From: Alphaproteobacteria bacterium
GTDB lineage: Bacteria > Pseudomonadota > Alphaproteobacteria > UBA828
Direction: 5' to 3'
Length of the DNA: 64,000 nucleotides
Assembly: GCA_965214705.1 (NCBI GenBank)
Contig: OZ243972.1
Location: 704,001-768,000 of the forward strand
A model generated the notes under the pieces. The model searched no databases, was not told the origin of the DNA, and was given only the letters and a program-made list of their open reading frames with translations. Shown one piece after another: positions 32,454 through 36,158 of the stretch. Position 1 is the stretch's first letter; each line of letters starts with the position of its first letter. The translations under genes and the position numbers were made by a program.

Positions 32454-32605
32454 TCATTCGACTTCGCCATCGAACCGAACCCTGTGAATTGTCACTCGTT
32501 CATCGTCGTAAGAGTACAGCACCCACAATTCGCGGGTCTCCGCTACTTTGTTTTGAGGGAACACGTGCACCAGATACTTCGTAGCTTCGTGATGGTATCG
32601 AGGAG
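32454..32605 (-). pseudogene. 3' half of a RelE-like toxin gene interrupted by the IS66 element
   Basis: YHHEATKYLVHVFPQNKVAETRELWVLYSYDDERVTIHRVRFDGEVE*; in frame with 35062-35211 once the IS and one TSD copy are removed. Confidence 0.8.
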
Positions 32606-32701
32606 GTAACTGCCCAGGTCTGATTCCGCCGAGCACTCACGCGTGATGGACTGATGCCTCTGGCCTGGTGCCGCTGACGTGGAGCGGAGCGGCGGGGGAT
32701 T

Positions 32702-34243
32702 TCAGAAGCGCAGTACCGGGATTAGCTGCATGGGATCGGGGTGCGCCAGGGTTTCGAGGACATTCCAGCGCTGTTTTCGAGCGGTGGCGATGACGGACCG
32801 CAGGTTGGCGAAGTCGCAGGCACCTTGCATCGAGCGGAAGCCGCCTGAGATTTTCTGACGCAGCTTGCCCATTCGCAGATCGCGCTCCGCCTCATTGTTC
32901 GAGAACGGGGTTCGCGGGTCGGTGAGGAAGCGCAGGCACCCCTCCTTGTACTTCTGGAGCCGGAGCGCGAGGTTGTGACCGATGCGGCGCTTTTGTCGTC
33001 CGCGCTTTCCGGTCTGGAGCGGCGGCATCTCTTCGTGAGCGGCGATGGCACGTTCGAGGATGCGGTCCCAGGCTCGCGAGATGCGGGCGACCAGTGATGC
33101 GGGCACGTCGCGATCATTCTTGCGGGCGAAGCGGGCGGCTCTGTTGGCACGGGAGAGCAGCTGGTGCGTGCTCGTTGCCCAGTCTTCCTTCTCGATCTCG
33201 ATCAGGGCCTGGAGCTCACGCAGGTGATGGGCGTTGCAGGCCCCGTGGCGCACGCCCTCGAGAGCGAAGTAGGTGGCATAGTCGTCATGGATGACGATGC
33301 CGTTGAGCTTCTCGTCGAAATGGCCGCGCCCGCTGGCGACGCGCAGGATGGTCAGCAACGGGGTGCACAGCACGTGGAGCCAATGGGTCCGGGCGGCGAT
33401 GCGGATGCCGGTCTCGTCGAGGTGTTTGACCGGGGCTTCGGTGCGGATGATCTCTGCGACACGATCGAGGAAGCCCTCGAAGCGCCGGGCGGTGCGCCGG
33501 CCCATGGCGGCGATGGTGGCCGTTGAGATCTTGACCGCGAAGAGATCGCTCATGACCTCGGCGACGCGCTTCTCCGGAATGAACTGAGCGTGCAGCAGGT
33601 AGGTCACCCACGCGGTGATGCGCGGCCCGTACTGGACCGGGGCGCTCACGCCGTTCGGGAAGGCGGCTGTTGTCATGGTACCGCAGGCGGCGCAGAGGCA
33701 GCGATGGCCGCGATGCTCGGTGGCCTCGAGGGGCTGCGGCTCGGGCACATCGAAGACCTGCCGGCAGACGGGGGCTCCGTGACGGTCGGCGTCCGACAGC
33801 GGCGCGCCGCAGCCCTCACAGGCGGACGGATCATGATCCACGACGTGGTCCGGGTTCTCGGTCCGCTCCAGGGTGGTTCCCTTGTGGCCCGGCTGACCGC
33901 CGCTGGGCCTGTCGGATTTGCCGCGCCGGCTCCGGGTGCGCTTCTCCTGGTCTCCGCTCTTCTTCTTCAGGCCGTCGCTGGCCGGCGGCTTGGAGCTGGT
34001 GGTGCTGTCGAGCGCGGCGCTGCGCTCAAGTTCGGCGATCCGCTCGCGCAAGCGGGCGTTCTCCCGCTCCAGCGCGTCGTTCTCCTTGACCAGCGCCGCG
34101 CTCAGGCGAAGCAGCCCCTGGCCCCATTCCCGGATGGCTTTGACGGCGGTCATCGCGAAGGATTGTGGGGTGAAAAGGTCCTGCAGGCACGCGAAAGCCT
34201 CGTCGTGAGCGGCGAGGTCCGCGTGCCAGCGCGACACTGTCAC
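32702..34243 (-). CDS. IS66 family transposase (TnpC-like)
   Basis: Coiled coil, SSKPPASDG, C..C...C..C zinc finger, HLDETG, HDDY, CNAHHLREL, NNEAERDLR..K...KISGGFRS. Confidence 0.95.
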   Translation of the reverse strand: MTVSRWHADLAAHDEAFACLQDLFTPQSFAMTAVKAIREWGQGLLRLSAALVKENDALERENARLRERIAELERSAALDSTTSSKPPASDGLKKKSGDQEKRTRSRRGKSDRPSGGQPGHKGTTLERTENPDHVVDHDPSACEGCGAPLSDADRHGAPVCRQVFDVPEPQPLEATEHRGHRCLCAACGTMTTAAFPNGVSAPVQYGPRITAWVTYLLHAQFIPEKRVAEVMSDLFAVKISTATIAAMGRRTARRFEGFLDRVAEIIRTEAPVKHLDETGIRIAARTHWLHVLCTPLLTILRVASGRGHFDEKLNGIVIHDDYATYFALEGVRHGACNAHHLRELQALIEIEKEDWATSTHQLLSRANRAARFARKNDRDVPASLVARISRAWDRILERAIAAHEEMPPLQTGKRGRQKRRIGHNLALRLQKYKEGCLRFLTDPRTPFSNNEAERDLRMGKLRQKISGGFRSMQGACDFANLRSVIATARKQRWNVLETLAHPDPMQLIPVLRF

Positions 34244-34908
34244 AAACCCTCGTCAGCCTCGACGGCCATGATCGCGGCCAGCACCGCCAGGCGTTCGCCC
34301 GCCGGCATGGCCTCGTAGCGCCGGCCCCAGTTGGCCGCCTTGCGCTTGATGCGCTGGCGGTCGGTGAAGTTGCGGCCCGCGCAGCTCGCCCAGTGCACCC
34401 GGTCGGGCGCGAAGTTGAACCACACCACCTCGGTCCGCACCTGGGCCTGGGTCGTCACCTGCAGCGCCAGCCGGCGCCAGCCCGCCAGCAACTCGTCATA
34501 GAGCGCAGACGGGTGGCCCGAGACCATCACCTGGCAGGGCAGACCCTTGAGCAGTTCGAGGAGCGCGACGTGGTCGGCCTCCTCGTACTCGAAGCGGTAG
34601 CGCTGCGACGAACGCCGGGTCGCGTGCAGATAGGGCGGATCGCTGTAGACCAGCTCCGGGCCCAGGAACGGGAACGAGGCCAGAAAGGAGTGGGCGCAGC
34701 CGTGCACCAACTCCACCGGGTAGCCACAGTCGAAGGACTCAAGCGCCCGCTCGTCGCGGTCAATCCCGATCGAGCGCACGGCCGCAGGCTTGCGCTTCAT
34801 CAGCGCCCCGCCCCCCAAGTGGCTCTCGATATAGACAGAGTGCGGGGGCATCAGCGCAATCAGCGCCTGGCTCAGACCGGTCGTCGCCTTCGATCCGAAA
34901 TACCCCAC
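34240..34908 (-). CDS. DNA adenine methyltransferase (compact Dam/D12-like)
   Basis: YFGSK (motif X), YIESHLGGG (SAM-binding motif I), YSDPPY (catalytic motif IV), VMVSG, RTEVVW.N. Confidence 0.9.
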   Translation of the reverse strand: MGYFGSKATTGLSQALIALMPPHSVYIESHLGGGALMKRKPAAVRSIGIDRDERALESFDCGYPVELVHGCAHSFLASFPFLGPELVYSDPPYLHATRRSSQRYRFEYEEADHVALLELLKGLPCQVMVSGHPSALYDELLAGWRRLALQVTTQAQVRTEVVWFNFAPDRVHWASCAGRNFTDRQRIKRKAANWGRRYEAMPAGERLAVLAAIMAVEADEGL

Positions 34909-34936
34909 CGGCTGCTCCTCTCATGCGAGAGAGCAA

Positions 34937-34965
34937 CCCATAGGCGAGCGCGCCTATACAGTCAA
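34937..34965 (-). promoter_or_regulatory. Putative promoter of the MTase-transposase operon with an overlapping palindrome
   Basis: Minus strand TTGACT-N17-TATGGG; ATAGGCG-N4-CGCCTAT inverted repeat at 34940-34957. Confidence 0.45.
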
Positions 34966-35061
34966 GGGGCAGATCATCGATGCGCCGACGGCCAAACGGC
35001 ACCGGCGGCGACCAACATCAGCACGCACTCAGATCTGGCGGCGGGGTACCTGGGTAGTTAC

Positions 35062-35211
35062 TCGAGGAGTTCCTTTTTCAGGACTTCTCGCAAGACGCCA
35101 TTCTATGCCGCGCCAGTGGTCATCGAAGCGCGGCGTCTGTGCAGTCGCCTCGTCGACAAAACATTGCGCTTGCGGGTCCAGCGCAACGTCCCGATATACG
35201 GACCACTGCAT
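35062..35211 (-). pseudogene. 5' half of the RelE-like toxin gene
   Basis: MQWSVYRDVALDPQAQCFVDE...WRGIEWRLARSPEKGTPR; its ATG overlaps the antitoxin stop (TAATG). Confidence 0.8.
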
Positions 35212-35819
35212 TATCGGGCTGCGGCGCTCTCGATTTGCTCGACAGCAGCGTTGGCCCAGTCTCTGACTTCATCCGTTATGGCTCCCTTACCACTAGCAAG
35301 AGTGGCATATAGGGGAATTTCCTCGCCCTCAGCGGCTGCTTCCCAAATCTCTTCATGGGTAAGTTCGCTGATCTCGTTTGCAGAGTGGCTGCACACAAAA
35401 TCAAGTACGATCTTGGCCCATGCCTGTTCCGCTTCCGACAAAATCCCGGAATCCAGCCGCCCGCGGAAAATGTATTTCCGCGTGTCATAATGATGCTCCG
35501 GTTCCTGGATGATAATTTTCTCGTCAGCCTCGAGCTCTGCCAACGTAGCAAGTATCGTCTTTGGAACAGGACCCTTCTTCCTCTTGACGTACGTTTCTCC
35601 GGTAATCGATACGCCATTCGCTTGGTAAGCGAGCATATCGGCAAACCAGAGTGCCTTGTTCAGCCTTATAGCTCCGAGGCGCGATGGGTTATGCCGGCAT
35701 TCGTGCACCATAAAGTGCACTAGCGCCTTGAACTTTTCCCGTGACATGGGACGCTCCCTCGGTTGGTCAGGGTCTACATATGGCACTTGACACACCAAAT
35801 GTCTAGTGTTAGGCGCCAT
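35211..35819 (-). CDS. Panacea (DUF4065/SocA-like) antitoxin
   Basis: RLNKALWFAD...G.SITGE.Y.K...GPVP and SANEISELTH...W pattern; start uncertain (35846, 35819 or 35747). Confidence 0.85.
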   Translation of the reverse strand: MAPNTRHLVCQVPYVDPDQPRERPMSREKFKALVHFMVHECRHNPSRLGAIRLNKALWFADMLAYQANGVSITGETYVKRKKGPVPKTILATLAELEADEKIIIQEPEHHYDTRKYIFRGRLDSGILSEAEQAWAKIVLDFVCSHSANEISELTHEEIWEAAAEGEEIPLYATLASGKGAITDEVRDWANAAVEQIESAAAR

Positions 35820-36158
35820 GTCCGAACGGCGATTCGTATGCTCCATAAGGCTAAGTGCCTATCAATCAAGCATATTTTAGGCGTTTTCCTCTCACGCCAC
35901 GAAGAACCTGAGGCGCTCGACCTTCATCCTCAGTATTCCTCGCGACTCGATGGCCCGCGTCGCGTGGGCGCATGAGACGGCTTCTCTTTCTCTTGGTGGG
36001 ATTCGCCGGGATTAAGTGGGACAAGTGGGATTTCACGGGCGGACGACGGGCGTCCGCCTATCCTGTCTCCGCCTCCTGGAGCGTGCTTACCTTTAACCAT
36101 CATCGTGCGATTGTGACGCGGGCGCCAAACGCTCTGCACCGCACTATGGTCCGGGGCG

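Follow-up and report, generated by a model that had tools for sequence, protein, structure and literature searches.

An IS66-family insertion sequence with a coupled, Dam-fold gene of the Upf31 family that may serve as its built-in autorepressor

The element and its two genes

The window analyzed here, a 64,000-nucleotide stretch of an alphaproteobacterial genome assembly (GCA_965214705.1, contig OZ243972.1, positions 704,001 to 768,000; lineage UBA828), contains at positions 32606-35061 a 2,456-bp insertion sequence (IS) of the IS66 family, which has GTAAC termini and carries two coupled genes on the minus strand and no others. The ends of the element pair at 13 of 14 bases, the transposase-distal terminal inverted repeat (32606-32619) reading GTAACTGCCCAGGT and the promoter-proximal one (35048-35061) reading GTAACTACCCAGGT inward, which is the reverse complement of the plus-strand end ...ACCTGGGTAGTTAC at 35061. 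An exact 8-bp target-site duplication, TCGAGGAG, lies on both flanks (32598-32605 and 35062-35069). The 14-bp terminal repeat fell outside the 25 longest pairs in the repeat search of the window, and the ends were read directly; both are conserved in relatives, with the repeat at 32606 present in 8 aligned ones and identical to the ends of a sibling IS of the same genome that lacks the first gene.

The first gene (34908-34240, minus strand) starts with GTG behind GAGAGGAG and encodes a protein of 222 amino acids (aa) with a DPPY motif at residues 90-93. The second gene (34243-32702, minus strand) encodes 513 aa and overlaps the first by the four bases GTGA (34240-34243), which hold the stop of the first gene and the GTG start of the transposase; an RNA hairpin is predicted over this transposase start (z = -2.28; equal folding in 6 of 200 shuffles). 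The 513-aa product is an IS66-family DDE transposase with an N-terminal DUF6444 coiled-coil region, as indicated by PF03050 (1.3e-38), PF20042 (DUF6444, 4.1e-10) and the IS66 family transposase equivalog NF033517 (283.3 bits, cut-off 180), and its DET, HDD and LRE motifs are invariant in the family alignment. Terminal repeats that begin with 5'-GTAA are part of the definition of the IS66 family, and the element shows the DDE transposase type, GTAACT at both ends and the 8-bp duplication. A first-pass annotation of the window, made from the letters alone, had described a complete 2,456-bp element with inverted GTAAC termini and an exact duplication, holding only two genes with a GTGA overlap, an intact IS66 transposase and, upstream of it, where canonical IS66 elements have tnpA and tnpB, a methylase-like gene; all of this was borne out.

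An active insertion sequence with intact and frameshifted first genes

The 7.9-Mb genome (3 contigs) harbors 12 full-length copies of the element at 98-100% identity, all 12 of them with exact 8-bp duplications at precisely the element ends and no two duplications alike. Because 12 near-identical copies each have a different duplication, chance is not an explanation, and the element is an active, recently expanding insertion sequence.

In seven of the 12 copies the first gene is intact, and the remaining five (loci L006, L007, L008, L010 and L011) have one additional G in the G6 run encoding the GGG loop, which shifts the frame at approximately codon 31. These five form one subfamily with about nine shared substitutions, each at its own site and with its own duplication; the frameshifted version has spread and was therefore either helped in trans or had no need of the first gene for movement. 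Variation was also observed in the transposase: in L003, L004, L005 and L012 the basic linker contains KKSGDQE twice in tandem, owing to an in-frame duplication of 21 bp, and L012 additionally has a 32-bp insertion that replaces the last transposase residues and changes the C-terminus. A second subfamily at 82% nucleotide identity encodes a first protein 89% identical to that of the window and has a frameshifted transposase, and in a further copy the first gene is split at approximately codon 40 by a 2,093-bp element of the IS1634 family (L098 1852-3944; G000:C1:2066851-2068943; NF033559, 5e-83). This IS1634-family element itself occurs in at least 20 genome copies at 100% identity, accompanied by a related family at 68%.

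The sibling IS mentioned above (L186 1851-3531; G000:C1, approximately 1947850-1949530) is a single-gene IS66 element of 1,681 bp that has GTAACTGCCCAGGT at either end and is flanked by the duplication GATATTGC. The transposase it encodes (501 aa; DUF6444, zf-IS66 and DDE domain) is 56% identical to that of the window, and the first gene is absent. Approximately 11 transposase-only matches at 66-67% nucleotide identity were also seen in this genome. Since five frameshifted copies have spread and a gene-less sibling with the same termini exists, the first gene appears not to be needed for the chemistry of transposition.

Linkage of the two genes across phyla and transposase lineages

A search of the genome collection found 266 related stretches, of which the best 80 were examined; these 80 loci come from 14 assemblies labeled Alphaproteobacteria (12), Dehalococcoidia, Binatia and Tectimicrobiota, i.e., four phyla, with up to 15 loci each. 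Both genes were present in order in all 80, and by an automatic test the transposase starts within a few bases of the first-gene stop in 78, the two genes of the other two loci being parted or split by insertions of 2.2-2.6 kb. A metagenome scan seeded with a deeper branch of the clade yielded at least 513 related stretches, 80 loci of which were kept and 72 were evaluable, having at least 300 bases downstream of the first gene; an IS66 transposase follows the first gene directly in 60 of these 72. In six of the 12 exceptions the downstream sequence is shorter than about 620 bases, L174 runs into a DUF6444 open reading frame (ORF) truncated by the contig end, L150 and L180 lead into other DDE transposases, L119 and L139 into housekeeping genes (ribF and an amino-acid permease gene, respectively), and L175 is unexplained. 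The transposases following the first gene in L150 and L180 are of the DDE_5/DDE_Tnp_1 type, an arrangement that represents either a nested insertion or the pairing of the cassette with another transposase family. The pairing of the methylase-like gene with IS66 is thus found across genomes, and the concern of the first-pass annotation that other copies might lack the gene, as after a one-off capture, did not materialize: all copies of the element and all relatives examined carry it.

Within the 60 metagenome loci the first gene is 64-74% identical to that of the window, and the transposase 27-35% (PF03050, approximately 1e-39). Two transposase lineages can be distinguished, lineage 1 including the transposase of the window and lineage 2 comprising gene-linked transposases that are 29% identical to either the window or the sibling transposase. 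As the first gene sits on more than one branch of the transposase tree, it has undergone either one or more losses or at least two acquisitions or exchanges. Between the two lineages the first gene is about 1.5-2 times closer than within-lineage rates predict, a comparison made at saturated synonymous divergence (dS) and with a possible exchange of modules between IS lineages in mind. The left ends of both lineages are alike, GTAACTAC, with GTAACTACTCACCCC as the lineage-2 left end in many loci, and a convincing lineage-2 right end was recognized in one locus, L162 (16 of 20 bases), with flanks that are not an exact duplication. One database protein, P0125, has a methylase-like start and, at its other end, the C-terminal part of an IS66 transposase of lineage 2 (PF03050, 1.2e-9); it is probably a deletion derivative of a lineage-2 element.

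For lineages separated by a dS of 0.25-0.5, the ratio of nonsynonymous to synonymous divergence (dN/dS) ranges from 0.17 to 0.26 in the first gene and from 0.24 to 0.30 in the transposase, and the proteins are 86-90% identical for the first gene versus 79-84% for the transposase. These values point to purifying selection on both genes and to better conservation of the first. In a quick, midpoint-rooted FastTree phylogeny of 181 family members, sequences at least 64% identical to that of the window form one clade (support 99), with the genomic context known for the fetched members, and this IS-borne clade is separate from the plasmid and phage homologues.

That the first gene is a neutral passenger, captured once and of no use to the element, would fit the loci at which it stands without an IS66 transposase (L119 beside ribF, L139 beside the amino-acid permease gene, L150 and L180 before other DDE transposases). 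Its presence in all 12 own copies and all 80 genome loci, its linkage to two deeply diverged transposase lineages and a dN/dS of about 0.2, with conservation exceeding that of the transposase, argue so strongly in the other direction that we give this explanation hardly any credence, and its one-off variant was rejected outright, being contradicted by the counts of own copies and genome loci.

More can be said for a transposition cofactor that would act together with the transposase, either on the ends of the element or on the target, and thereby replace TnpA/TnpB. The first gene sits upstream of the transposase, with translation of the two coupled, it has been retained alongside two transposase lineages that share about 30% identity and have similar left ends (GTAACTAC), and lineage-1 transposases have approximately 47 N-terminal residues for which the gene-less sibling has no counterpart. 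However, five frameshifted copies have transposed, even if the protein may have been supplied in trans, a sibling IS that shares the termini does without the first gene, and conservation of the first gene is far above that of the N-terminal transposase region that its product would contact. A predicted complex of the transposase and the 222-aa protein scored 0.00 (mark 0.32), which speaks neither for nor against binding. Taken together, we regard a cofactor role as quite improbable.

The taxonomic and environmental range was also considered. In a phylum sample of 401 genomes a close copy was found in the own genome only and homologues at 42-45% identity in two others, with no transposase alongside; this is a statement about the genomes searched and no proof of absence elsewhere. 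First proteins of a Dehalococcoidia-labeled assembly (L016, L028, L030, L031 and L060) are 95-96% identical to those of Alphaproteobacteria-labeled assemblies, which suggests, from sequence identity, a recent cross-phylum transfer, unless binning or labeling is wrong. Among the matches listed for public sequencing runs, the element or relatives appear in 20 runs, which belong to 13 studies and include metagenomes of sponge, coral and marine origin. In three RNA libraries, contigs span both genes at 88-99% identity and end at 32606 and 35061; the flanks are uncovered and carry-over of DNA is possible, so that these public-run contigs indicate neither transcription nor habitat.

The first protein has a Dam-type core without the DNA-recognition domain

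Searched against Pfam at E 0.01, the 222-aa protein matches no family, and the NCBIfam model 'dam' stays below its threshold (8e-6, 25.7 bits versus a cut-off of 114.85, residues 85-154). Of its aligned relatives, 34 out of 40 match PF02086, the D12 class of N6-adenine DNA methyltransferases (best 9.2e-15), PADLOC models for Type II methyltransferases are matched at 2.5e-21 and the PHROG family 'DNA methyltransferase' at 7.2e-21, and the source databases carry the label DNA adenine methylase. Because the window protein alone has no Pfam match, its methyltransferase label rests on these relatives (PF02086) and on the fold. Hence, of the 'DPPY methyltransferase' of the first-pass annotation, the motif at residues 90-93 was confirmed directly, and the enzyme name stands by way of the relatives and not by a profile match of the protein itself. 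A disguised tnpA or tnpB was considered and rejected, given the methyltransferase fold and the lack of any match to the tnpA/tnpB-type families PF01527 and PF05717.

The family is large: in a collection clustered at 90% identity, 3,768 clusters among 5,292 candidates were retrieved at E <= 0.001, the best 120 of which are all at least 71% identical and approximately 220 aa long, and in a 50%-identity library 6,018, 2,526 and 515 representatives were found at E 1e-3, 1e-10 and 1e-30, respectively. No variation is seen at G32, D90, P91 and P92 in the alignment of 40 members, and Y93 is conserved to at least 90%; the alignment also reveals an N-terminal GxK, a loop rich in glycine (E28, G32, G34) and, around RIKRKA, a basic stretch that is conserved at the C-terminus. 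DPPY follows the S-adenosylmethionine (SAM) loop by about 57 residues, and the catalytic motifs (DPPY and the glycine loop) are kept in 16 out of 16 clade members.

The AlphaFold2 model (pLDDT 89.4, pTM 0.84) has a Rossmann-type core up to approximately residue 168, followed by long helices at 181-200 and 203-221. The four structures most similar to it are DpnM (Z 16.7), E. coli Dam (16.5), Mcbe1 (16.4) and T4 Dam (16.2), in agreement with Foldseek and about 2 Z units above generic small methyltransferases; a sequence search of the PDB with the 222-aa protein gave DpnM at E 0.55 only. The structural alignment is limited to model residues 1-168 against Dam 8-270, with 146 of 243 Dam residues aligned. 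As modeled, the protein is a Dam-type catalytic core (1-168, with GGG at 32-34) that lacks the DNA-recognition domain of Dam and has a C-terminal helical hairpin (181-221). Among the hallmarks of the D12 class, DPPY and the glycine-rich loop are present, the profile threshold is not reached and the inserted target-recognition domain is missing.

Homologues outside insertion sequences and the precedent of Upf31

Homologues were also found on plasmids and phages, with 198 matching records in the plasmid collection (134 of them conjugative) and 78 matches in the phage collection, all below 60% identity and, where full-length in phages, located in P2-like phages of Salmonella and Klebsiella. Neither collection contained a first-gene homologue or a transposase above 60%, and hence no annotated copy of the element. 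On a Xanthomonas conjugative plasmid the homologue stands alone, a further one lies on an Acinetobacter plasmid, and on the Methylorubrum extorquens plasmid pME152 (L094 3989-6773) a 44% homologue overlaps the beginning of a gene for a cysteine desulfurase, behind which comes a DUF4007 gene, a layout that we take to be reminiscent of DNA phosphorothioation clusters. No transposase lies beside the plasmid homologues examined (Xanthomonas, Methylorubrum, Acinetobacter and IncP-1beta) or beside the two chromosomal ones (42-45%).

The homologue of IncP-1beta plasmids, upf31.0, is 43.3% identical over residues 1-220 and retains DPPY and GGG. Its product Upf31 is the only experimentally studied member that we found (Elg et al., Mol Biol Evol 2025, PMC11997246), and what follows on Upf31 is drawn from the parts of that report accessible to us. 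These parts describe no Dam-like protection of GATC sites and, in methylase-free E. coli, no kinetic signature of base modification in SMRT (single-molecule real-time) sequencing, the authors still considering methylation of another substrate possible; in a reporter assay, full-length Upf31 represses the upf31 promoter (0.09 versus 4.76 XylE units), an operator of inverted CAGCATCG repeats is proposed, and a modeled C-terminal dimerization domain is needed for the phenotype (PMC11997246). The window protein shows full-length homology to Upf31, a core with two C-terminal helices and an inverted-repeat operator layout in its own promoter, and is assigned to the Upf31 family on these grounds.

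These observations bear on whether the first protein functions as an orphan N6-adenine DNA methyltransferase with many target sites in host or vector DNA, so that carrier DNA survives restriction or host expression is altered. The invariant catalytic motifs under purifying selection are what such an enzyme would show, as are the PF02086 matches of 34 out of 40 members, the PADLOC (2.5e-21) and PHROG (7.2e-21) matches and the database name DNA adenine methylase, and the homologues reside on conjugative plasmids (134 of 198 records) and P2-like phages, where orphan methylases are usual. Yet a Dam-type recognition domain is lacking, and Upf31 as the sole tested homologue gave neither GATC methylation nor a SMRT signal in the accessible parts of the report (PMC11997246). 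Moreover, a conserved promoter palindrome together with the autoregulation of Upf31 is better suited to a site-specific binder, and protection from restriction would be indirect at best, because an insertion sequence is never transferred alone. An orphan methylase therefore appears rather doubtful to us.

A putative promoter with a conserved palindrome and a leader hairpin

Upstream of the first gene we found, in this order on the minus strand, a putative promoter (34937-34965) consisting of TTGACT (34960-34965), a 17-base spacer and TATGGG (34937-34942), followed by a leader hairpin (34910-34938) that pairs the Shine-Dalgarno sequence GAGAGGAG (34915-34922). Located in the spacer and overlapping the -10 box is a candidate operator, a perfect 18-bp palindrome at 34940-34957 (ATAGGCG, 4 bases, CGCCTAT; in its conserved form ATAG, 10 bases, CTAT). 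The -35 box is conserved in all aligned relatives, and TAG, exactly 10 bases and CTA occur 3-5 bases after TTGAC in 84 out of 84 distinct promoter sequences of the fetched elements. Their outer base pairs are A..T in 55, A..C in 12, G..C in 11, A..G in 4, C..T in 2 and G..T in none. A degenerate version of the operator pattern has one other occurrence in the window, two matches being reached in 7 of 100 shuffles.

The same layout accompanies homologues outside insertion sequences. The consensus promoter of the elements reads TTGACA, one base, CATAG, 10 variable bases and CTATGCTG, and the upf31.0 promoter of plasmid pB8 reads TTGACA, G, CATCG, 10 bases and CGATGCTG; two chromosomal homologues have TTGACAT, CATCG, 10 bases and CGATG, and the Xanthomonas plasmid homologue has CATAG, 10 bases and CTATGCTG. 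The inner half-site base changes symmetrically, A together with T and C together with G, as expected for a site that is read by a dimer. Judged by these comparisons, one and the same gene travels together with a common promoter-operator layout, be it on a plasmid, on a chromosome or in the insertion sequences described here. On pB8 (L101 2380-2470) a second CATCG, 10 bases, CGATG repeat lies approximately 46 bases upstream of the repeat in the upf31.0 promoter, which fits the clustered repeats that the accessible parts of the report describe for IncP-1beta plasmids (PMC11997246).

The leader hairpin folds more stably than expected (z = -3.64; equal folding in 0 of 200 shuffles), and at least 70% of the Shine-Dalgarno window is paired in 56 of 73 distinct leaders compared to 230 of 730 shuffles.

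A built-in repressor as the favored interpretation

Considering the operator layout and the Upf31 precedent, the first protein is, on balance, probably the element's own repressor, which would limit expression of the transposase; DNA binding, dimerization and repression are all taken over by analogy with the Upf31 experiments. One promoter near the left end (in gene orientation) would drive the two-gene operon, and the first protein would dimerize via its C-terminal helices and bind the palindrome CATAG, 10 bases, CTATG between the -35 box and the overlapping -10 box. The bound dimer would then shut off the whole operon including the transposase, and as a result transposase output per copy would fall as the copy number rises. 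Leader hairpins that guard against read-through have been described for other insertion sequences, and the hairpin found here might likewise block translation of transcripts entering from outside.

Several observations weigh against this interpretation. The properties in question are transferred from a plasmid protein of 43% identity, whose operator is itself proposed rather than footprinted, and no such repeat lies upstream of three out of seven non-IS homologues (phage SEN5, the Acinetobacter plasmid and the Methylorubrum plasmid). A consensus promoter scan of 32500-35200 returned no promoter-like site; it missed the promoter because the -10 candidate TATGGG lacks the final T, and the promoter was consequently assigned by visual inspection and by conservation. 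Conservation of the right half-site may in part be due to the -10 box, with which it overlaps, the outer bases are unpaired in 16 of 84 promoters (A..C in 12 and A..G in 4), and a perfect 5+5 inverted repeat is expected by chance at about 0.15 per 170-base region according to our own arithmetic. The sequences compared are related, so that counts of sequences are not counts of independent events. Finally, GxK, GGG and DPPY are invariant across the clade, and a pure repressor would not obviously need them; these invariant catalytic motifs are the main unexplained point for a model of repression alone.

They would be accounted for if the protein were both repressor and enzyme and methylated adenine in the CATAG/CTATG half-sites of its own operator over the -10 box, i.e., if a Dam without recognition domain were delivered to a single site, its own operator. 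Through hemimethylation, expression of the transposase would then be linked to replication, as it is by host Dam in the case of IS10, but in a manner that does not depend on the host and can be carried from phylum to phylum. Such local methylation is compatible with the lack of a SMRT signal for Upf31, because the accessible parts of the report mention no operator in the sequenced strain and a site of about 20 bp is unlikely to occur there by chance. We nevertheless consider this dual role unlikely. The self-methylating transposon proposed in the first-pass annotation was not upheld: a Dam-type recognition domain is lacking, Upf31, which has the same operator layout, represses itself and shows no methylation signal in the accessible parts of its report, five frameshifted copies have transposed, and a sibling IS with the same ends does without the gene.

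Relation to known elements and regulators

Compared to canonical IS66 elements such as IS679, the element has the same transposase family, GTAA ends, an 8-bp duplication and accessory coding sequence upstream of and overlapping the transposase, but neither tnpA nor tnpB lies upstream, and the gene found there instead encodes a protein with a methyltransferase fold. In IS679, all three genes are reportedly needed, a finding of Han and colleagues from 2001. With the ISBst12 group it shares the IS66-type DDE transposase without tnpA/tnpB, the 8-bp duplication and very similar termini (GTAACTACCCAGGT and GTAACTGCCCAGGT here), whereas it differs in having a second, conserved and coupled upstream gene and in being approximately 775 bp longer than the sibling IS (2,456 versus 1,681 bp). 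ISDge4 of Deinococcus geothermalis, an experimentally active member of that group, has the termini GTGACTACTCAGCA and GTAACTGCTCAGCA and an 8-bp duplication, and the group is defined by a single ORF in the parts of the report accessible to us (PMC12898284). The element fits neither the three-gene nor the single-ORF definition and is best classified as an IS66 element of the ISBst12-like type to which a regulatory cassette has been added.

The first protein resembles the Dam family (E. coli Dam, T4 Dam and DpnM) in the fold of the catalytic core, DPPY and the glycine-rich SAM loop; unlike in this family, about 100 Dam residues including the DNA-recognition domain have no counterpart, and two extra C-terminal helices are present. 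The likeness to Upf31 extends over full-length homology, the core with C-terminal helices, DPPY and GGG, and the inverted repeat with 10-base spacing after TTGACA. Upf31 stands alone on its plasmid and, according to the accessible parts of the report, is proposed to act with KorB, whereas the protein described here heads an operon with a transposase in an IS; the half-site is CATAG in the element versus CATCG for upf31, and the IS-borne proteins form their own clade (support 99).

Transposase expression held down at the element's own promoter is familiar from other insertion sequences, namely from the control of IS10 and IS50 by host Dam and from IS-encoded repressors such as InsA of IS1. Here the proposed factor would, by analogy, be encoded by the element itself and have a methyltransferase fold.

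Both parts of the element are of known kinds, and as far as we can tell the novelty lies in their conserved combination, in how widely it occurs and in the shared operator. Our literature searches, conducted at the level of abstracts and outside ISfinder, TnPedia and REBASE, found no published description of a methylase-like gene paired with IS66, in line with the first-pass view of an undescribed arrangement. IS66 is a large IS family whose mechanism and accessory proteins are still poorly understood, and the present analysis defines a subgroup with a wide distribution in environmental bacteria, in which a single-gene IS66 transposase stands behind a portable cassette of promoter, palindromic operator and Dam-fold protein, a cassette that is also found on IncP-1beta and other plasmids. 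It offers a likely explanation of how such elements limit their own copy number and provides a minimal two-gene system for learning the function of the Upf31 family, a question left by the plasmid work. Furthermore, thousands of proteins listed in databases as 'DNA adenine methylase' may be regulators under a wrong name. To our knowledge, and by our literature searches, no transposon with its own Dam-type epigenetic control is known, and if methylation of the own operator were true, this element would be the first one known to bring it along.

The insertion site

The copy in the window disrupts a gene, fragments of which lie at 32454-32605 and 35062-35211 (minus strand); when the element and one copy of the duplication are removed, a continuous frame of 116 codons results. 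Neither fragment has a Pfam match. The own genome is very rich in insertion sequences. The interrupted frame is located directly downstream of a gene (35211-35846) with a SocA/Panacea antitoxin domain (PF13274, 1.8e-15), and because of this position it may encode the partner toxin.

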